A DNA stretch of 64,000 bases. It comes from Terriglobia bacterium. GTDB lineage: Bacteria; Acidobacteriota; Terriglobia; JAJPHL01; JAPKYU01. Of the stretch, positions 14,743-57,787 are shown one piece after another (within the stretch, counting starts at the first letter, position 1; each line of letters begins with the position of its first letter). A program made the position numbers and the translations under genes. The notes beneath the pieces are model-generated. The model had not been told where the DNA came from, did not search any database, and worked only from the letters and a program-made list of their open reading frames with translations. The DNA lies in assembly GCA_965206645.1 (NCBI GenBank), contig CBDBKE010000001.1:1-64000 (forward strand), given 5' to 3'.

Positions 14743-16125
14743 TTATTCCAGCGGTTTGAGATCAGCCAGCATCGTGGGGATCAGCTCTGACACGGTAGGG
14801 TGAATGTGCACAGCCCGCTGGATCACCGTGTAAGGCGCTTTGGCGTACATGATATCCAGGATGGAATGGATGATCTCGTCGCCGCCGATCCCTAGGATTG
14901 CTGCACCCAGGATCTCTTTGGACTCGGCGTGAACCAGGATACTCATGAACCCATGCGTTTCGCTTTTCTCCACCGCACGGCCAACGCGGGTCATGGGCCT
15001 TTTGGCCGTTAGCGCTTTCTGGCCGGATTTCCGCACCTGCGTTGCCGTCATCCCGGCTCGTCCCAGCGGCGGATCGACGTACAGAGCGTAGGCGGGAATG
15101 CGGTCACTCACGCGGCGAGGGTCATTATCTAGCAAATTGGCGGCTACGATCTCGTAGTCATTGTACGAGGTATGAGTAAAGGCCCCCTCTCCGTTGCAAT
15201 CGCCCAACGCCCAAACGCCGGGCACACTGGTGCAAAGTTGATCGTCCACAGCTATGTAGCCCCGTTGGTCCATCTCGATGCCTACCTTTTCCAGCCCCAG
15301 GTCTTCCGTGTTCGGGCGGCGCCCCACGGCAAGCAGTAGATGCGAACCCGTCACTTCCCTTGCGTCGCTGTCGCAATCTAGCTTCGCCGCCACCTTGTCG
15401 CCGCGTTTTCCCACACTGAAACACTTGGCATCGAGGCGGATGTTGACACCTTCGTTTTCGAGAATCTCCTTGGTTGCATCGGAGACGTCCTCGTCTTCGC
15501 GCTGGATCAGTCGCGGACCCATCTCGATGATGGTCACTTCGCTGCCGAAGCGCCGATACATCTGGCCGAACTCCAGGCCAACGTAGCTTCCGCCGATGAT
15601 GATCAGGTGCTCCGGGAGGAAGTCCACCGTCATCATGCTGGAGTTGGTGAGGTAATCCACACTATCGAGACCGGATATGGGCGGAATGAAGGCCCGCCCC
15701 CCAACGTTGATGAAGATCTTGTCCGCTTCCAGCAGCTTCTCACCGACACGGAGCCTGTGAGGATCCTCGAAACGTGCGTGGCCCTCATACACCGTGCCGT
15801 TCTCCATGTTCTTGAGCCGCTTTTCCACGCCTTCGTTGGACCTCCGCACTACGGCATCCTTGCGCGCCTTGACTTTCTTCATGTCCACGGCGATGGGGTC
15901 CTTGACCATAACGCCGAAGTCGGCACCCCGCTTCGCCATGTGGGCGACCCGGGCACTGGCCACCAGGGTCTTGGTGGGGATGCAGCCGGTGTTGACACAG
16001 GTGCCACCGAACAGATTGCGCTCAATGACAGCCACTTTCATCCCCGTTCCGGCCAACCTACCTGCCAGGGATGGTCCGGACTGCCCCGTGCCGATGATGA
16101 TCGCGTCATACCTATCAGCCGACAT
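14743..16125 (-). CDS. Class-I pyridine nucleotide-disulfide oxidoreductase (mercuric reductase/dihydrolipoamide dehydrogenase-like)
   Basis: GTGQSG, GGTCVNTGCIPTK redox disulfide, GGSYVGLE, HPTVSE. Probable start at MSADRY (16125). No C-terminal CC pair. Confidence 0.9.
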   Translation of the reverse strand: MSADRYDAIIIGTGQSGPSLAGRLAGTGMKVAVIERNLFGGTCVNTGCIPTKTLVASARVAHMAKRGADFGVMVKDPIAVDMKKVKARKDAVVRRSNEGVEKRLKNMENGTVYEGHARFEDPHRLRVGEKLLEADKIFINVGGRAFIPPISGLDSVDYLTNSSMMTVDFLPEHLIIIGGSYVGLEFGQMYRRFGSEVTIIEMGPRLIQREDEDVSDATKEILENEGVNIRLDAKCFSVGKRGDKVAAKLDCDSDAREVTGSHLLLAVGRRPNTEDLGLEKVGIEMDQRGYIAVDDQLCTSVPGVWALGDCNGEGAFTHTSYNDYEIVAANLLDNDPRRVSDRIPAYALYVDPPLGRAGMTATQVRKSGQKALTAKRPMTRVGRAVEKSETHGFMSILVHAESKEILGAAILGIGGDEIIHSILDIMYAKAPYTVIQRAVHIHPTVSELIPTMLADLKPLE

Positions 16126-16225
16126 TCGTTGGCCCTCCCTATGGGTAGAAATTGGACTGAGTATAATACAATTGATGTCAGCTTCCCGGCCATCCTCGCC
16201 AAGAATCGTAGCGGCAGGTGCGTGA

Positions 16226-17521
16226 ATGCGGTCCTCGGAACTAATTTCAATGCTAGTGGATTCGCGCAAGCGAAGCCTCGAACTGTTGGCGGACCTGACG
16301 GACGAGCAGTTGAAAACGCCGTTGCTGCCGGTCATCAATCCGCCCATCTGGGAGATCGGCCACGTCGCCTGGTTCCAGGAAAGGTGGGTGCTTCGGCACT
16401 TGCAGGGTAAGCCGCCCATTCTTTCTCAGGCCGATTCTCTCTGGGACTCTGCCGCGGTTTCGCACGACACTCGCTGGGATTTGCCGCTCCTGTCGCGTGC
16501 CGAAACCCAGAGTTTCGCCCAGGAGGTCCTCAATCGGGTGATTGAGACGCTACCCCCGGGTGATGTGGCCGAAAGCGAAGCGTACTTTTACTGGCTGGTG
16601 GTGATGCACGAGGACATGCACGGAGAAGCATTCACTTATACTCGACAGACACTCGGCTATCCGGCGCCTGTGCTCTCAGTGGGTGCGCGCCAGAGGTTCG
16701 GCTCCGCAGTTCCGAACGATGCCCCTGGTACTGTCTCCATCCCGGGTGGAAACTTTCTCCTCGGTGCTACACCAGATGAGATTTTCGTCTTCGACAACGA
16801 GAAATGGGGTCACAAGGTTTACGTGGAGCCGTTTGCGGTTGCGAGCACGCCGGTCACGAATCGCCAGTTTGCCGATTTTGTGGACGACGGCGGTTACCGC
16901 ATGCATCAATTTTGGAGCGAAGAGGGATTCGCCTGGCTCAAGAAGGAGGGCGCCGAGCATCCGCTCTACTGGATTCGGAACTCCGGCGGCTGGTTGCAGC
17001 GGCACTTCGACCGGATTGTGCCGCTCGCCGAGAACCTCCCGATCATTCACGTCAACTGGTATGAGGCCGAAGCCTACTGCCGCTGGACCGGTTGCCGGTT
17101 GCCCACCGAAGCCGAATGGGAGCTAGCGGCTGGGGCTGAGCCGGCTTCCGGCGGAATCTCGGAGTCCCGGCGCCGATACCCGTGGGGTGACGATCCACCC
17201 ACGTCGGAACGGGCTCACCTCGATGCGCTCGGCATCGGTTGCCTGCCGGTAAGGGCCCTGGCGTCTGGGGACAGCGCCTTTGGCTGCCGCCAGATGATTG
17301 GCAACGTATGGGAATGGACGGCGACGGAATTCCAACCGTATCCGGGCTTCGTTGTTGACCCCTACAAAGAATACTCGCAGCCCTGGTTCACACCCGCGCA
17401 CAAGGTTCTCCGAGGCGGGAGCTGGGCCACTCGCTCACGGCTGATCCGCAACACCTGGCGCAGTTTCTACACAAAAGACCGCCGGGATGTTTTCGCCGGT
17501 TTTCGCACCTGCGCGCAGTGA
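16226..17521 (+). CDS. senA: Selenoneine synthase SenA (EgtB-like, DinB_2 plus FGE-sulfatase domains)
   Basis: 'INPPIWEIGHVAWFQERW', Fe-binding HEDMHGE, FDNE, RLPTEAEWE, GNVWEW, YKEYSQPWF, FAGFRTC. Lies next to a senB gene. Confidence 0.82.
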   Translation: MRSSELISMLVDSRKRSLELLADLTDEQLKTPLLPVINPPIWEIGHVAWFQERWVLRHLQGKPPILSQADSLWDSAAVSHDTRWDLPLLSRAETQSFAQEVLNRVIETLPPGDVAESEAYFYWLVVMHEDMHGEAFTYTRQTLGYPAPVLSVGARQRFGSAVPNDAPGTVSIPGGNFLLGATPDEIFVFDNEKWGHKVYVEPFAVASTPVTNRQFADFVDDGGYRMHQFWSEEGFAWLKKEGAEHPLYWIRNSGGWLQRHFDRIVPLAENLPIIHVNWYEAEAYCRWTGCRLPTEAEWELAAGAEPASGGISESRRRYPWGDDPPTSERAHLDALGIGCLPVRALASGDSAFGCRQMIGNVWEWTATEFQPYPGFVVDPYKEYSQPWFTPAHKVLRGGSWATRSRLIRNTWRSFYTKDRRDVFAGFRTCAQ

Positions 17522-18639: not shown

Positions 18640-19626
18640 TTACCGGGTGCGCGGATTCAGCTCGCTTAGCAGCTTTCTCCACCGAGCGCTTTCGTGCGAT
18701 GGCCGGAAAAGAGGTGCCCGTCGAGAGCACCACGATTTCAACCGCCCGTAGAACTCCCGGTCTGATTCTGCTCGAACCAGCAAACGTACCAACGCGTCCG
18801 TGTCCCTGACGGGGAAATAGCCGGGATAGCCCGTGCCCAGCAGACCAACCGAGCCAGGGATGCGCGACGAAAGCACCGGAACGTGGTCGACCATGGCTTC
18901 CGAAATCACGTTGGCGCCGCCTTCCATGAGCGAACTCAACACGAGGAGACGGCTGGCCGCGATCAGTCGTCGCGCTTGCACTCGAGGGATTCCTTGCAGC
19001 CATCGGTAGCGCGGGTTTCGGCTCGCTTCGGCTCGCGCCTGCTGGGCCATTGCCTCCGCCATCGCCGTGCCTGCTTGCAGTATCCGGATCCTGGACGAGA
19101 CCGGCAGATGCCGGCTGGCGAGGGCAGCGCGAAAGGGGTCCTTCACCTTTCGCAGGTGACCAACGACACAGACATCAAAGAAACTCGACCGGCTGGAAAC
19201 CTGGCGTCTCGTGCCTCGAGTAGCTGATTTCTTCGTCTTCTCTACAGACTGGTAGATGACCTGGGCTTTTCGCCGCAGATGGGAGGGGAGTTCTTTCAGG
19301 GCAAGAGGCTGAAACACAACTAGACGCGTGGCCAGTTCAACTATCTGCCGTGCGCGCCGTTCGCGGCGGAAGTCGCGATAGAGATCGGTGCCCGTCAGAG
19401 CGACAATGACAGGCCGGTCAGGATACCGGTCGTGGAATCGAAACACGGGCTCCGCACTGCGCCGGGCATGCAGGGCGATCAAGAGGTCGCAGAGGGTGCC
19501 TTCGTACTGTTGCGCGATGCTCACGCGATGGCCCAGCCCCTTCAGAATCCTTCCCCACCGAAGCGCTGTGACCCTGTTGCCATAGAGGGTTCCCGGCGGT
19601 GCTGGGCAGATCAGTTCAATCCGCAT
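18640..19626 (-). CDS. senB: Selenosugar synthase SenB (TIGR04348-type glycosyltransferase)
   Basis: 'PAPPGTLYGNRVTALRW', 'IALHARRSA', 'LTGTDLY', 'GHLRKVKDPF', 'SLMEGGANV', 'GSVGLLG..YPGYF' match my recollection of this family. Confidence 0.87.
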   Translation of the reverse strand: MRIELICPAPPGTLYGNRVTALRWGRILKGLGHRVSIAQQYEGTLCDLLIALHARRSAEPVFRFHDRYPDRPVIVALTGTDLYRDFRRERRARQIVELATRLVVFQPLALKELPSHLRRKAQVIYQSVEKTKKSATRGTRRQVSSRSSFFDVCVVGHLRKVKDPFRAALASRHLPVSSRIRILQAGTAMAEAMAQQARAEASRNPRYRWLQGIPRVQARRLIAASRLLVLSSLMEGGANVISEAMVDHVPVLSSRIPGSVGLLGTGYPGYFPVRDTDALVRLLVRAESDREFYGRLKSWCSRRAPLFRPSHESARWRKLLSELNPRTR

Positions 19627-36896: not shown

Positions 36897-38145
36897 TGAC
36901 CTGACCGGCACTTTTTGTACCAAGTGGAAAGAGAGAGAATCCACTTGAGGAGGAAGTGAGGTCATGCCGACAAGGAGTTACAAGCCGGAGCGGATTGTAG
37001 CGGTGCTACGGCAGATAGAAGTGCAGATGGGGAACGGGAAGACTGCGCCCCAAGCCTGCAAAGAAGCTGGAATCCACACCCAAACCTACTACCGGTGGCG
37101 GAAGGAATACGGCGGGCTGAAGGTGGTGCAGGCAAAACGGCTAAAGGAGTTGGAGAAGGAAAACACGCGGCTGAAGCGGTTGGTAGCGGAGCTTTCTCTG
37201 GAGAAGCAGGTGCTGCGGGATGTGGCACAGGGAAACTTCTGAGCCCTGAGCGGCGGCGTTGTGCGGTGGAGCGTGCGTGGGAGCAACACGGGTTGTCGGA
37301 ACGGCATGCCTGCCGGCTGCTGGGGCAATGGCGAGGGACACAACGATACGAGCCGATTCATCGGGTGGACGAGGATGCTCTGACCCGAGCGATCATTGCC
37401 CTGGGAGCGAAGTACGGGCGATATGGCTACCGGAGGATCACAGCGTTGCTGCGGAGTGCGGGCTGGGAAGTGGGCAAGGACCGGGTGCAGCGGATTTGGC
37501 GGCGGGAAGGGCTAAAAGTGCCGCAAAAACAAAGGCCGCGAGGACGGCTGTGGCTGAACGACGGTTCCTGTGTACGACTGAGGCCGGAGCGACCGAACCA
37601 CGTGTGGAGCTACGACTTCATGAGTGCCAGAACGCACGAGGGGAGAACGCTGCGGCTGCTGACCTTGCTGGATGAGTACACGCGGGAATGCCTGGCGATC
37701 CGGGTGGAGCGGAGGATGGGCAGCCAACAAATCATTGAGGCGTTGTCGGACGTGATGTTGTGGCGAGGGATACCGGAACAGATTCGATCCGACAATGGTC
37801 CCGAGTTCATCGCCAAACAACTGCGCCAGTGGTTGGCAAATCTAGGGACCGGGACACTGTACATCGAACCGGGCAGTCCCTGGGAGAACGGGTACTGCGA
37901 GAGTTTCAATGGGAAGCTGCGGGACGAATGCCTGAATGGAGAGATCTTCTACTCGTTGAAGGAGGCACAGGTGGTGATTGAACAGTGGAGGGTGCAATAC
38001 AACACGGTGCGGCCGCACTCGGCGCTCGGCTATAGGCCCCCGGCGCCGGGGGCCTATAGCCCTCCCCTGTCACTGAAACCAGTTTCACAGCCCCAGGCTG
38101 CGATGTGAACTCTCACTACGGTTGGTACAAAAATCGGTCTGGTCA
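36897..38145 (+). mobile_element. IS3-family insertion sequence (~1.25 kb)
   Basis: Imperfect terminal IRs: TGACCTGACCGGCACTTTTTGTACCAA (36897) vs TTGGTACAAAAATCGGTCTGGTCA (ends 38145); TG...CA ends; orfA/orfB inside. Confidence 0.92.
36964..38108 (+). CDS. IS3 transposase OrfAB (OrfA 36964-37242; OrfB in the -1 frame to 38108), programmed -1 frameshift
   Basis: OrfA HTH 'TYYRWRKEYGG...LKELEKEN'; OrfB WSYDF, RSDNGPEF, PGSPWENGYCESFN DDE core; slippery G-GGA-AAC at 37230-37236. Confidence 0.93.
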
Positions 38146-53993: not shown

Positions 53994-54229
53994 TTTCAGT
54001 TGTGCCATATAGTCGGCTTATCGGAAACTGACCCATTATCCGCAACTGCGGCCCTGGACTATAATCAGCTGGGGATGCAGGTTAGCGAGATTTTCTTCTC
54101 CATTCAGGAAGAACCCACCTTTGCCGGCGCGCCCTGCGTGTTCGCGCGGCTCACCGCATGCAACCTGCGCTGCTCCTGGTGCGATACGGAGTACGCCTTT
54201 TACGACGGCCAGCTCATGAAGCTGGACGA
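53994..54229 (+). repeat. Diverged copy 1 of a ~235-bp direct repeat (queE promoter plus first ~52 codons; truncated pseudo-queE)
   Basis: Aligns by eye with 57066-57300; includes CNLRCSWCD but has QG->QE and ES->EP changes and an early stop at 54246-54248. Confidence 0.9.
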
Positions 54230-54508: not shown

Positions 54509-54832
54509 ATGTTCCACAGCGTAATGCGGTGGGCATTTGCGGGGGTCTTCTTCGCCACAGCCTCCTGTGCTCAGGTCTGTTCGGAGATTGGTTTGCAAGG
54601 GCAGTCCGCGTCTGCTTGCTCGCATGAGCAGTCAGGGAAAGAGCAGCCGGGAGACAATCAGTGCAAAGCTTGCATGCAAGGGCACTTTTTCCAAGAATCA
54701 AAGGTGAAGATGGATTGTCCGACCGGGACATCATTGGAGCCGGCGGATAGCATCACTGCGCTTCTCGCGCCGGCGAGGAAGTTACCCGCCAACGAACCCG
54801 CGTTATTCACGCCTCTCGTCTTGCGCATTTAG
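54509..54832 (+). CDS. Cys/His-rich small protein, putative metal-responsive leader ORF (DUF2946-like architecture)
   Basis: Hydrophobic N-terminus, CAQVC, CSH, CKAC, Pro-rich tail ending PLVLRI. Confidence 0.65.
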   Translation: MFHSVMRWAFAGVFFATASCAQVCSEIGLQGQSASACSHEQSGKEQPGDNQCKACMQGHFFQESKVKMDCPTGTSLEPADSITALLAPARKLPANEPALFTPLVLRI

Positions 54833-54931: not shown

Positions 54932-55918
54932 ATGACTCTTCTGTATGCAGATCATCTGGATCAAGCGGGTTCCTTCGCGCGTCATCGGCCTCCGCGGCAG
55001 CGCCTAATCCTGCTGGCGTTTCTCGCGGCTGGAATAGCGCCCTGCGCGTTCTCGCAAGGACCGATGCCGGAAGAAGGAGCTACCCTGTTCCCGAGCGGCG
55101 CGTTCATTTCCTACAGTTCGATCTTTACGACGGGCAGGTTCGAACCGGGCACAGACTCGGATACCCCCGGAGCGAGAACCCGTCCCACTTTCCAGCACGA
55201 GGTCCCGCTCACCTTCAGCATGTCCTTACGCCGGGACGTCCAATTCACCGCCGTTGTGCCGATCGTGACGAAGCGGGTGAAGTTGCCCGATACCGAATTC
55301 GGCGGTACGGGGCTGGGAGACGCCCTGGTATCGCTGAAGTACCGTTTCCTCCGGCGGGATTCGGAGCGCGGCACTACGCAAGCGGCCGTGACCGTTGGCC
55401 CCAAGCTGCCGACGGGAGCAACCGGCCAGCGGGATTCCCAAGGCAGCCTGCTGCCCATTCAACTCCAGCCGGGCTCTGGCTCGACCGATTTTTTCGTCAA
55501 GGTAAACGGCACCCACACGGGTCTTTTCAATCTTCGTCGCCTCGTTGCGGATGCTTCCTTTAGCTATTTGTTTCGAACGGAAGGAAGCCGGGATACCCGG
55601 CTCGGAAACGCGATGGTAGCGCGCCTTTGGTTGCCTTACCGCCCGTACCAAGCCAAAACTCTGGGGGCTGAATGGTTCCTCGGTCCCTCTCTGACCTGGC
55701 AGCATCGGGATCGAGACCGGCAGTCAGGCGTCCGGCAGCTTTTTACGGGGGGAGACTCCCTGACTCTGGGATTCACATCGTACGTGAGCCCCGTGGAAGG
55801 GTTGGTTTTCTGGGTCGGCCTGGAGTTTCCAATCTACCAAAACAGCAATGGGGCGCCGCATGAGCTGTCGCGACGGATCAATGTGGGCGTGACCAAACAA
55901 TTCGTTCTGCGTCCCTGA
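54932..55918 (+). CDS. Putative outer-membrane beta-barrel 'transporter' (MetA-pathway/phenol degradation-like family)
   Basis: Signal-like segment, 'GTGLGD...LKYRF', 'GPKLPTG', 'QPGSGSTD', amphipathic strands; GGAGG RBS. Confidence 0.75.
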   Translation: MTLLYADHLDQAGSFARHRPPRQRLILLAFLAAGIAPCAFSQGPMPEEGATLFPSGAFISYSSIFTTGRFEPGTDSDTPGARTRPTFQHEVPLTFSMSLRRDVQFTAVVPIVTKRVKLPDTEFGGTGLGDALVSLKYRFLRRDSERGTTQAAVTVGPKLPTGATGQRDSQGSLLPIQLQPGSGSTDFFVKVNGTHTGLFNLRRLVADASFSYLFRTEGSRDTRLGNAMVARLWLPYRPYQAKTLGAEWFLGPSLTWQHRDRDRQSGVRQLFTGGDSLTLGFTSYVSPVEGLVFWVGLEFPIYQNSNGAPHELSRRINVGVTKQFVLRP

Positions 55919-55942
55919 GGATGCAGGTACAGGAGGCAAACA

Positions 55943-56476
55943 ATGAAACGGAAGAGTTTCCTTTGGGCTGTGATGCTCGTGAGCGCTTGGATCCCGGCCC
56001 TATCCGCCGGAATTGACCGCGTGGAAATGCGCGTGCAAGGGATGACCTGAAATTTCTGAGCCTACGGGGTGCAACAGCACCTTCAACGCCTGGATGGCGT
56101 TGCGAAAGCCGAAGTCAGTTTGCTCGACGGGCGTGTTACTGTTTTTCCCAAGCCAGGCGCCGCGCTCGATCCCTCTCGAATTTTGAAGGCCGCTTACGAC
56201 AGCGGGGTCTCCGTTGTAGAAATGGAAATGACAGCCTCCGGGTCCTTGCAGGACTCGGGGCAAGGCCTGGTTTTCCGCCCGACCTCGCAGCAGTCGTTCG
56301 CGGTCAACCCCAATGCGCTCACGGAGAAATTTAAGCCTCTGGGAAGCTCCGGCCGGGACGTTTCGATCCGGGCGCGGCTTTACCAGGCTCCCCCCGGCGG
56401 GGCGAAATCAAAGGATCCTCCGAAGGGCCTGAAGCCGGCGAAGGACCTGAAGCTGGAAGTCCTGGAGATCCACTAG
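55943..56476 (+). CDS. Secreted heavy-metal-associated (HMA) domain protein with two in-frame TGA codons (GMT-U-NF-U): candidate UxxU selenoprotein, 177 aa
   Basis: AGGAGG at 55931-55936, ATG 55943. MKRKSFLWAVMLVSAWIPALSA|GIDRVEMRVQGMT*NF*AYG continues in frame into ORF 56069-56476 (VQQHLQRLDGVAKAEVSL). TGA at 56048-56050 and 56057-56059. Confidence 0.85.
56066..56102 (+). promoter_or_regulatory. Two tandem in-CDS hairpins, candidate bacterial SECIS elements
   Basis: GGGGTGC-AACA-GCACCTT (56066-56083) and CAACGCC-TGGAT-GGCGTTG (56084-56102), just 3' of the two TGAs. Confidence 0.55.
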
Positions 56477-56488
56477 GAGAGTTGCCCC

Positions 56489-57025
56489 ATGGCGGTTGCA
56501 AAGATGCTCGTCCTTCTTCTGCCTGCCTTCCTGTTGCAGCTTGCCTTCGCTGCATGCAGCCGGTCCCCTCCCTCCCCGCAATTGGGGCACGGCACGATGA
56601 ATATGGAAATTCAGCCCAAAGAGCTATCGCGCCTACCCTCGTTCGCATTCAAGGACCTCTCGGGGCATGTAGTTTCTTCGGATCAGTTTTCCGGAAAGGT
56701 GCTACTCGTGGATGTCTGGGCCACTTGGTGCCCGCCCTGCAAGCAGGAGATGCCGTGGTTCCAGGAGCTTTACGAACAGTACCGCGACCAGGGACTCGAA
56801 GTGATCGGGATTTCCATTGACCCGAATCCTGCCGATGCCCGCCGATTTACCCAGGAACTCGGAATCACCTACACGCTGCTTCACCATCCCGAGGTAATGC
56901 AGGAATGGGGGTTGCTGGGCCTCCCGACGACCCTCGTCGTGGACCGCGAGGGAAGCATCCGCGGGAAGATTGTGGGTTTTGATTACAAGGAAACGTTCGA
57001 AGCGGCTTTGAAGGAGTTGCTCTAG
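56489..57025 (+). CDS. TlpA/ResA-like thiol-disulfide oxidoreductase lipoprotein
   Basis: Lipobox FAAC, WATWCPPCKQEMP, GLPTTLVVDR. Confidence 0.92.
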   Translation: MAVAKMLVLLLPAFLLQLAFAACSRSPPSPQLGHGTMNMEIQPKELSRLPSFAFKDLSGHVVSSDQFSGKVLLVDVWATWCPPCKQEMPWFQELYEQYRDQGLEVIGISIDPNPADARRFTQELGITYTLLHHPEVMQEWGLLGLPTTLVVDREGSIRGKIVGFDYKETFEAALKELL

Positions 57026-57065
57026 ATCGGTGGTAGCGACAATTCTGTTCTGAACTAGTTGGCAA

Positions 57066-57300
57066 TTTCAGTTGGACGAGTAGTCGGCTTACCGGAAACT
57101 GAGCCGTTATCCGCAACGGCGGCCCTGGGCTATAATCAGCTTGGGATGCAGGTTGCCGAGATTTTCTTCTCCATCCAGGGAGAATCCACCTTTGCCGGCG
57201 AGCCCTGCGTGTTCGTGCGGCTCACCGCGTGCAACCTGCGCTGCTCCTGGTGCGACACCGAGTACGCTTTTTACGACGGCCAGCCCATGGAGCTGGACGA
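57066..57300 (+). repeat. Copy 2 of the queE 5' direct repeat (intact copy)
   Basis: Aligns with 53994-54229; contains TATAAT at 57131-57136. Confidence 0.9.
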
Positions 57301-57787
57301 GGTGCTCCGTCGGGTGAGCACCTATCCGGCGCGACTGGTGGAAATCACCGGCGGCGAGCCCATGCTTCAGGAGGGAGAAGTGCTGCCCCTGATGGCGCGC
57401 CTGCTGGAGCAGGGCTACCGGGTGCTGCTGGAAACCAGCGGGGAACGCTTCCTGGGCCGGGTCCCGCCCGAGGTCGTCAAGGTGATGGACGTCAAGTGCC
57501 CCGGCTCGGGCGAAGCGGAAAAATTCTGCTTCGAGAATCTGCAAGTACTGTCACCAAGTGACGAAGTGAAATTCGTGCTGGCGGACCGTCCCGATTACGA
57601 GTTCGCTTGCCAGTTCCTCCAGCGTCACGGGTTATGCGGCAAAGTGCGGGCCGTGATCTTCTCGCCGGTCTTCGGGCAACTGGAGCCACGCCAGCTCGCC
57701 GAATGGATCCTGGCCGATGGCTTAGACGTTCGCCTCGGACTCCAATTGCACAAATTCATCTGGGACCCGGCGATGCGGGGAGTTTAA
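57146..57787 (+). CDS. queE: 7-carboxy-7-deazaguanine synthase (radical SAM)
   Basis: EIFFSIQGES, CNLRCSWCDT, ITGGEP, LETSG, MDVKCPGSG, QLHK; next to queC. Confidence 0.93.
   Translation: MQVAEIFFSIQGESTFAGEPCVFVRLTACNLRCSWCDTEYAFYDGQPMELDEVLRRVSTYPARLVEITGGEPMLQEGEVLPLMARLLEQGYRVLLETSGERFLGRVPPEVVKVMDVKCPGSGEAEKFCFENLQVLSPSDEVKFVLADRPDYEFACQFLQRHGLCGKVRAVIFSPVFGQLEPRQLAEWILADGLDVRLGLQLHKFIWDPAMRGV

Follow-up and report, generated by a model that had tools for sequence, protein, structure and literature searches.

The double-TGA reading frame and its product

The window considered here is a stretch of 64,000 nucleotides (nt), analysed at its full length, from contig CBDBKE010000001.1 of a Terriglobia bacterium (Acidobacteriota). 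At 55943-56476 it carries a gene with two in-frame TGA codons, which we propose are read as selenocysteine (Sec, U) in an exported protein of the HMA type. This gene consists of the following features.

55943..56476, + strand: gene of the putative 177-residue double-Sec (UxxU) HMA protein, stop codon TAG 56474-56476 included
55931..55936, + strand: Shine-Dalgarno sequence AGGAGG, 6 nt 5' of ATG 55943, read directly
55943..56008, + strand: predicted signal peptide, residues 1-22 (MKRK, a hydrophobic core and ALSA/G), cleavage site placed by eye
56027..56188, + strand: HMA domain, ferredoxin-like beta-alpha-beta-beta-alpha-beta, residues 29-82 (Pfam, AF2, Foldseek)
56048..56050, + strand: TGA as putative Sec36, first ligand position of GMxCxxC
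56057..56059, + strand: TGA as putative Sec39, second ligand position of GMxCxxC
56228..56473, + strand: small beta domain at the C-terminus, residues 96-177, including a Lys/Pro-rich loop (AF2, family alignment)

Translation of 55943-56476 with TGA as U yields 177 residues and no other stop. The product can be written MKRKSFLWAVMLVSAWIPALSA/GIDRVEMRVQGMT-U-NF-U-AYGVQQHLQRLDGV..., where the basic and hydrophobic N-terminus ends in ALSA/G; past this point it continues as IDRVEMRVQGMT-U-NF-U-AYGVQQHLQRLDGV..., followed by about 85 more residues. Printed sequences of the family have a comparable hydrophobic N-terminus. Translation table 11, on the other hand, yields only an open reading frame (ORF) of 135 amino acids (aa) that starts at GTG 56069. 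TGA is the commonest stop in the window, which has a G+C content of 61%, and the genetic code must be regarded as standard because TGA terminates 16 of the 36 frames that reach 300 codons, among them senA and the barrel gene upstream of the UxxU gene.

The HMA domain was recognised by Pfam PF00403 over residues 29-82 (35.3 bits against a cut-off of 24.8, with C substituted for U), and the two TGAs fall on both Cys columns of the GMxCxxC motif. An AlphaFold2 (AF2) model based on a 51-row alignment reached a predicted local distance difference test score (pLDDT) of 88.9 and a predicted TM-score (pTM) of 0.81. Its HMA part has strands at residues 23-32, 53-59 and 64-69 and helices at 37-48 and 77-86, so that residues 36 and 39 lie at the start of helix 1, i.e. 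at the junction of loop 1 and helix 1. When the model was compared with the PDB by Foldseek, only HMA proteins were returned, namely HMA7, CopZ (6ff2, TMt 0.91), ATP7B domains, MerP (1osd), Atx1, and domain 1 of CCS. The last HMA strand continues into a small beta domain (strands 90-104, 109-114, 117-121, 139-148 and 171-176), in which pLDDT is 89-97 per 10-residue block and 71-73 in the Lys/Pro-rich loop at about residues 151-170. This domain is kept throughout the 51-sequence family. Pfam and NCBIfam scans assigned it to no family, the whole-model Foldseek search gave no match to it, and the 51-sequence alignment contains no conserved Cys, His, or Met in it. It may serve as a docking or spacer domain rather than as a second metal site.

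Among NCBIfam models, the best match was NF041115, 'UxxU_metal_bind', at 45.4 bits over model positions 1-50 of 74; a six-frame search of the genome with this model gave 32.9 bits for the same gene. The protein has UxxU in an HMA-type domain, as NF041115 describes, but it scores below the curated cut-off of 95. Two other assignments were considered and rejected. The CopZ models NF047957 and NF033795 gave 41.9 bits against 85 and 41.2 against 91, and the presence of a signal peptide and a second domain sets the protein apart from a small cytosolic CopZ; a UxxU protein of the SelL type would need a thioredoxin-like fold, whereas the fold here is that of an HMA protein.

An earlier note on this DNA, made from the letters alone, had described the AGGAGG, the ATG at 55943, the signal peptide, and a single frame to the TAG at 56474-56476, all of which can be read directly. 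Its placement of the TGAs on the two Cys positions of GMxCxxC agrees with the Pfam match and with the 51-sequence alignment.

Authenticity and proposed decoding of the two TGA codons

The TGAs of 55943-56476 are not sequencing errors. Contigs from four public runs belonging to four studies are at least 99% alike over 55700-56700, keep both TGAs and contain no indels, and three of these four independent contig sets span the region in a single piece. They differ at eight places within 55700-56700, neither TGA among them; the differences inside the gene (55960, 56146, 56155, and 56332, one of them 5' of the TGAs) are all synonymous third positions in the read-through frame. Three RNA-library runs, one of them among these four, contain most of the stretch.

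The full Sec machinery is present in the host genome (4.4 Mb, 4 contigs, 98% complete). It includes one tRNA-Sec (selC; Rfam 78.5 bits, over the cut-off; called SeC with anticodon tca by ARAGORN), SelA (441 bits), SelB (a wing-3 domain of 72.8 bits within a 649-aa frame), and a Sec-type SelD (354 bits) with one in-frame TGA of its own.

The same genome encodes a second HMA selenoprotein candidate at C2:228261-228446 (-), a short, MerP-like protein with GMT-U-NA-C (UxxC) that matches NF041115 with 63.9 bits, under the cut-off, and has close copies in genomes G001 and G002 (loci L045/L046). The window itself contains the selenoneine synthesis genes senA at 16226-17521 (+; NF041186, 504.6 bits against a cut-off of 420) and senB at 18640-19626 (-; TIGR04348, 374.7 bits against 300), about 36-40 kb from the UxxU gene. 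Adjoining senA at 14743-16419 (-) lies a gene for an FAD-containing pyridine-nucleotide-disulfide oxidoreductase (NF004992, 797.9 bits), whose longest ORF has about 100 extra N-terminal residues, perhaps simply reflecting an upstream start codon. An IS3-family transposase is encoded at 37095-38108 (+; NF033516, 237.7 bits against 160).

The two ligand positions exchange Sec and Cys among relatives. When 61 related genomes were searched in six frames with the read-through protein, 27 gave matches, many with one or two in-frame TGAs, and the two ligand columns appeared as UxxU, UxxC, CxxU, or CxxC. In this first survey, UxxU was seen in the window, G057 (57% identity), and G001, while UxxC occurred in many loci, CxxC in several, and CxxU in one (G006). 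The relatives share an architecture of signal peptide, HMA domain, and C-terminal domain in the alignments, and the invariant columns of the 51-sequence family alignment are G33 and the two ligand positions (C or U). The sole CxxU member seen, L026 (G006:C66, about 248-463, -), reads GYL-C-GF-U, lies on a short contig, and has a further TGA about 30 codons on.

An alignment-based search at E <= 1e-8 matched 182 of 401 genomes of the class, a tally that takes in weaker matches to other HMA proteins and 4 genomes flagged as unpublished, which contributed no loci. With 20 further loci taken in, the distinct UxxU genes total 20. In a tree built by a quick method, with the signal peptide and motif columns omitted and with Shimodaira-Hasegawa-like approximate likelihood ratio test (SH-aLRT) values as the only support, the window falls into an all-UxxU clade of 13 rows (SH-aLRT 98), and a second UxxU clade comprises 6 rows (support 94). 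The UxxU label requires two changes on this tree, which would still be compatible with a single origin of UxxU.

The distribution of the gene was assessed with the DNA signature GGN ATG ACN TGA AAY YTN TGA GCN TAY GG, i.e. GMT-TGA-N-F/L-TGA-AYG, which was found in at least 119 stretches of species-representative genomes (one genome per species). The titles of 80 among these matches are nearly all Acidobacteriota or Terriglobia. The matches listed include Sulfotelmatobacter, Angelobacter, Acidiferrales, Acidoferrum, Terriglobales, Acidobacteriaceae, and Solibacteraceae, as well as Limnocylindria/Limnocylindrales (2), Cybelea (1), and entries named 'uncultured bacterium'. GMTUNFUAYG is in frame in all 119 loci among the matches listed, and in 106 of the 110 with at least 600 nt downstream the next stop follows 130-139 residues on. 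N-termini are conserved among the UxxU relatives and no other lesions were seen in the homologues.

A different picture emerges from a public protein collection. All 38 relatives recovered there among 130 candidates (E <= 1e-5) are truncated to 127-138 aa, cover 62-76% of the query, lack a Pfam domain, and are unnamed or called 'hypothetical protein'; nine that were inspected start at V/MQQHL, just 3' of the second TGA. No full-length Cys orthologue of the window's clade was present among these 38, although lengths of 97-310 residues were eligible.

Two hairpins lie directly 3' of the UGAs and are candidates for a selenocysteine insertion sequence (SECIS).

56066..56083, + strand: hairpin 1, GGGGUGC-AACA-GCACCUU, candidate SECIS, 15 nt after the first TGA
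56084..56102, + strand: hairpin 2, 7 bp, loop UGGAU with an invariant G, candidate SECIS, 24 nt after the second TGA

Hairpin 1 begins only 6 nt 3' of the second UGA, and the UGA-to-hairpin spacing suggests a division of labour between the two hairpins. RNAalifold applied to the 20 UxxU sequences recovered the complete hairpin 2 and, of hairpin 1, the three outer pairs. Paired cells amount to 98%, and the closing pair of hairpin 2 (46-64) is GC in 11 and CG in 7 UxxU sequences. Covariation was 0.237 against 0.141 in shuffles (0 of 500 reached the observed value) and at most 0.097 when the partners were slid, a comparison that favours the structure in that it was derived from the same 20 sequences.

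Stable structure after the motif tracks the presence of Sec. Over the 48 nt after the motif, the mean z against synonymous-codon shuffles was -2.76 in UxxU genes (n=20, all negative; window -2.26), -1.42 in UxxC genes (n=18), and -0.44 in CxxC genes (n=24, P-type ATPase genes among them). In genes of the two-domain family, at least 6 of the 7 pairs of hairpin 2 were found in 19/20 UxxU, 10/15 UxxC, and 0/15 CxxC sequences, and the mean folding energy of the hairpin-1 region was -9.0 (n=20), -9.65 (n=15), and -2.1 kcal/mol (n=15) in the same order. When 56030-56130 of the window is folded alone, z is -0.77; the signal appears only with synonymous-codon controls and the comparison of relatives.

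These results bear on the possibility that the locus is a pseudogene or an assembly error, its real product, if any, being the 135-aa ORF from GTG 56069. This explanation would account for what table 11 yields and for the fact that public databases hold only truncated forms. However, four independent assemblies agree on the TGAs; in all 119 loci among the matches listed, both TGAs are preserved in frame together with the signal peptide and the first beta strand; the strong ribosome-binding site precedes ATG 55943 and not GTG 56069; and the TGAs are followed by hairpins specific to the Sec form. In addition, the truncated product would lose the signal peptide, strand 1, and the start of HMA helix 1. 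We consider a pseudogene or an assembly error extremely improbable.

The proposal of the earlier note that this is probably a selenoprotein is supported, since homologues keep TGA at both positions, other clades have Cys there, and other lesions are lacking. The checks that it had called for, on selA, selB, selC, and selD in the source genome and on the TGAs in independent data, found all four genes and both codons, and its expectation that gene callers would drop the N-terminus holds for every one of the database relatives. It had also taken senA and senB as an independent sign of selenium metabolism. Both genes are indeed in the window and indicate selenium use in the genome, but they are not linked to the UxxU gene.

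The surrounding cassette and its position at queE

The UxxU gene is the third of four genes in a conserved cassette, in the order small Cys-rich protein, barrel, UxxU protein, and TlpA-like lipoprotein. It begins 24 nt after the barrel gene and ends 12 nt before the TlpA-like gene. Two copies of a direct repeat lie outside the four genes.

54509..54832, + strand: cassette gene 1, small secreted Cys/His-rich protein, 107 aa, ending in ...PLVLRI, no known family
54932..55918, + strand: predicted outer-membrane beta-barrel channel, 328 aa, COG4313 / Phenol_MetA_deg type by fold match, with an ordinary TGA stop
56489..57025, + strand: last cassette gene, TlpA/ResA-like thiol:disulfide oxidoreductase, 178 aa, probable lipoprotein, WATWCPPC
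54010..54229, + strand: left copy of a direct repeat of 220 nt, comprising a partial 5' end of queE, 91% identical to the right copy
57081..57300, + strand: right copy of the 220-nt repeat, inside intact queE (57059-57787)

The small protein matches no Pfam or NCBIfam family. It has a hydrophobic N-terminus, Cys/His/Met clusters (CC..MPC..CC in most relatives) and a conserved C-terminal PLR[IV]. In 13 of 13 UNFU/UNLU loci, the barrel gene is preceded by an ORF that starts with a hydrophobic segment, contains Cys clusters, and has [LF]R[IV] at its C-terminus. The barrel protein likewise has no sequence-family match in Pfam or NCBIfam. Its Protein Atlas neighbours (score 0.99) carry PF13557 on 11-24% of their members, and its AF2 model, of medium confidence (pLDDT 75.2), is an all-beta barrel whose best folds are the COG4313 channel 4rl8 (E 5.8e-10, TM 0.57/0.67) and then FapF 5o65 (E 1.8e-9). 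A PcoB/CopB copper channel was considered for this protein and set aside, as no sequence-family match to it was obtained and the folds listed are COG4313, FapF, FadL, porins, and autotransporter barrels. In locus L081 (G161), the barrel at about 1062-1968 matches in two overlapping pieces, suggesting a frameshift or an assembly error. For the last gene, the TlpA model is the second-best NCBIfam match, with 85.1 bits against a cut-off of 230, and its CxxC is Cys in 13 of 13 orthologous loci. A relationship of this neighbour to SelL was rejected, since NF040769 gave no match (15.5 bits against 120).

The cassette is strictly kept in the census. Barrel and TlpA-like homologues are present in 88 of the 88 complete loci (at least 1300 nt on both sides) among the matches listed, and same-strand ORF clusters across the 119 loci contain the barrel in 109, the TlpA-like protein in 108, and the small protein in 92+6. 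Clustering of the same 119 loci over 8 kb gave no same-strand cluster of more than 10 loci beyond the cassette. On the opposite strand, two clusters (59 and 33 loci) lie across the barrel and TlpA genes; they are taken for shadow ORFs. A minority of the matches listed have further genes just downstream of the cassette, for a Cation_efflux protein (10/119) or a MerR-family regulator (8/119), with examples at L125:1272-1889 (-) and L163:6769-7215 (-). At the locus of the closest homologue, a multicopper oxidase adjoins the cassette (one locus, L016:2-997 -).

The sister clades have another arrangement, in which the two-domain HMA gene lies directly behind a gene for a MerT-like membrane protein. 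This protein of about 105 aa has adjacent TGAs (..LLAPS-U-U-VLPQVLAGLG..) where MerT-like proteins elsewhere have CC. The ORF with UU occurs in 11 distinct loci, namely L049:1141-1458 (+), L018, L020, L021, L042, L060, L064, L066, L071, L075, and L077, some of them with a CxxC HMA partner, and scores 26.4 bits with Pfam MerT against a cut-off of 32.9. A UU dipeptide does not figure in the selenoprotein passages of the reviews at hand. In genome G147 (L089 and L091), the second UxxU clade (GMI-U-GL-U) has two small membrane proteins nearby whose first helices resemble that of MerT; one contains CC, the other C-U (..LPW-C-U-ILPA..).

In the window, the cassette is bracketed by the 220-nt direct repeat, and intact queE now follows directly after the TlpA-like gene. 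An 82-aa ORF at the left repeat is 78% identical to the N-terminus of QueE. In three genomes of the same genus, with 83-95% identity over queE-queC, the upstream flank leads directly into a continuous queE and there is no cassette. Because queE is uninterrupted at this place in these three genomes, the cassette of about 2.85 kb is best read, by sequence comparison, as an insertion at the 5' end of queE in the window's lineage. The closest homologues of the three larger cassette genes, at 55-57% identity, are in a genome of another family.

Proposed function and relation to known systems

We put the probability that 55943-56476 encodes a genuine two-Sec, exported, two-domain HMA protein at about 85%, with its decoding, metal, and cassette roles in part inferred. 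Guided by the hairpins at 56066-56083 and 56084-56102, SelB and Sec-tRNA would decode both UGAs, and the Sec-type signal peptide would export the protein to the periplasm. A soft metal ion such as Cu(I) or Hg(II) may then be bound by the two selenolates of the mature protein, whereas the metal is held by two thiolates in CopZ and MerP. The TlpA-like CxxC lipoprotein would keep the Sec pair reduced in the oxidising periplasm. The outer-membrane channel, of the 12-strand type, and the small Cys/His-rich protein would complete a four-gene cassette for soft-metal handling, in which they may move or hold the same ligand in the envelope.

Several observations weigh against this reading. The stem of hairpin 1 is present in all UxxU sequences, but its pairing register is off by one between the two UxxU clades. 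A G is often present in the loops of bacterial SECIS elements, and the AACA loop of hairpin 1 has none. Hairpin 2 is not specific to the second UGA because it is also kept in one UxxC clade, and part of its conservation may reflect coding because it overlaps conserved R-x-x-G-V codons in a genome of 61% G+C. An Rfam scan of 55800-56600 at E <= 10 returned only the chance-level hits sX5 and WT1-AS_4, although no curated model of a bacterial SECIS exists. Because the compared sequences are related to one another, the counts make them look more independent than they are. One contig comes from an RNA-library (metatranscriptome) run, X5, and is no proof of transcription. Finally, Pfam and NCBIfam scans and a search for MerT motifs revealed no metal pump, MerT, MerA, or metal-sensing regulator in the window's cassette.

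Binding of a soft metal by the UxxU protein is argued by analogy and appears fairly likely to us. A metal role is supported because the fold matches are HMA proteins, the minority neighbours are of the kinds described above, and the sister clades have MerT-like genes. As to the metal itself, copper would come somewhat ahead of mercury.

It is conceivable that the Sec pair is instead a redox centre that cycles between diselenide and diselenol, as proposed for SelL, and that the protein works with its TlpA-like partner as an oxidoreductase or an electron relay in the periplasm. In every complete locus among the matches listed, its neighbour is a CxxC lipoprotein with a thioredoxin fold, the window's cassette lacks a metal pump or metal regulator, and most prokaryotic selenoproteins are redox proteins according to the available passages of reviews. 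However, the fold is HMA and not thioredoxin, and every close structural match is a metal chaperone or metal-binding domain. The sister clades moreover pair the same two-domain protein with MerT-like transporters, and genes for cation efflux, MerR-type regulation, or a multicopper oxidase adjoin the cassette in a minority of loci. We know of no HMA domain with a catalytic redox role, and we consider a redox function of this kind unlikely.

An analogue of MerP that scavenges periplasmic Hg(II) specifically, rather than a copper or general soft-metal carrier, was weighed in the same way. Hg is bound very tightly by selenolates, the NCBIfam and fold matches include MerP, and a MerT-like gene lies directly upstream in sister clades. 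The known UxxU HMA family is also listed as 'putative mercuric reductase' in a review passage. Nevertheless, assignment to MerP itself was rejected, as its model (TIGR02052) gave 32.1 bits against a cut-off of 92.55 and the scanned neighbours are not mer genes; merT, merA, and merR are lacking in and beside the window's cassette, and a motif search of the window gave nothing MerT-like. The locus of the closest homologue has a multicopper oxidase. In the 8-kb loci, only the four genes of the cassette are common to most of the 119 soil-lineage genomes among the matches listed, and therefore a housekeeping function would fit better than a resistance island. A mercury-specific role is improbable in our view, and a carrier of copper or of soft metals in general is preferred.

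A periplasmic client of the kind proposed here has parallels among Cys proteins. In Bradyrhizobium, the periplasmic reductase TlpA readies the Cys pairs of its clients ScoI and CoxB for copper loading. The likeness lies in a thioredoxin-fold CxxC protein, anchored in the membrane, that is encoded next to a periplasmic protein needing a reduced chalcogen pair to bind metal; the difference is that the putative client here would be a diselenide/selenol pair in an HMA fold, and that the TlpA score remains under the cut-off. With MerP (TIGR02052; PDB 1osd and 1afi), the protein shares an exported HMA domain with a GMxCxxC-type site (TMt 0.74-0.77), but MerP is a periplasmic Hg(II)-binding protein with Cys ligands, a single domain, and merRTPA operons, whereas the window gene has Sec, a second domain, and no mer neighbours. 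CopZ and Atx1 (6ff2 and 1cc7) share the fold and the geometry of the site, CopZ 6ff2 giving the highest TM-score (0.91); they differ in being cytosolic Cys proteins of about 70 residues with P-type ATPase partners, and their model scores are under the cut-offs. The barrel has its best folds in the COG4313 channel 4rl8 and FapF, yet it is a barrel without a sequence-family match.

With respect to Sec itself, the closest described likeness is NF041115, an HMA-type domain in which both ligand cysteines are replaced by Sec. NF041115 describes a single domain of 74 positions, whereas the window protein, at 177 residues, also includes a signal peptide and a second beta domain and belongs to a conserved four-gene cassette. 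SelL also has two Sec separated by two residues, but differs in fold and presumed chemistry, redox diselenide as against metal ligation. The earlier note had held UxxU to be rare and had named SelL as its example; the rarity stands, but UxxU is not confined to SelL, given the HMA-type UxxU of NF041115. In the parts available, reviews also list UxxU forms of Prx-like proteins, a 2026 review adds a UxxU protein of the FmdB family, and a 2026 paper on Group 4 [NiFe] hydrogenases likewise uses the term UxxU. Prokaryotic selenoproteomes are described mainly for anaerobes in the review passages, and Acidobacteria go unmentioned in the accessible portion of the 2026 review. The main text of a 2007 paper, as far as it was available and with its supplements outside the scope, has no passage on a UxxU HMA protein, and the text of the BSepDB paper does not mention HMA, UxxU, mercury, or Acidobacteriota. 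No description of exported HMA selenoproteins or of an exported two-domain cassette family in Acidobacteriota was found among the titles listed and the texts consulted, a provisional result in that supplementary tables may list the family. The kind of protein is already known because NF041115 and the reviews hold UxxU HMA selenoproteins; provisionally, the family, its gene context, and the tandem hairpins are the new details.

A bolder proposal would be that the diselenolate site is obligate and has no Cys orthologue, that hairpin 1 serves the first UGA and hairpin 2 the second, and that the mobile cassette is an undescribed envelope system for a soft metal or for selenium. We regard this combination as possible but doubtful.

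The double-Sec protein appears to be real, widespread, and unannotated in soil Acidobacteriota. At least 119 species-level genomes carry the gene, yet the database relatives found lack the signal peptide and the metal site. A family model would mend these truncated annotations and extend the selenoproteome of the Acidobacteriota by a double-Sec family. The occurrence of UxxU, UxxC, CxxU, and CxxC on one scaffold offers a test case for what selenium adds to a soft-metal site, and UGAs spaced as closely as 9 nt, with hairpins open to separate mutation, offer a case for how such pairs are decoded. Finally, the strict conservation of the cassette, seen in 88/88 complete loci among the matches listed, points to a metal-handling system of the envelope.

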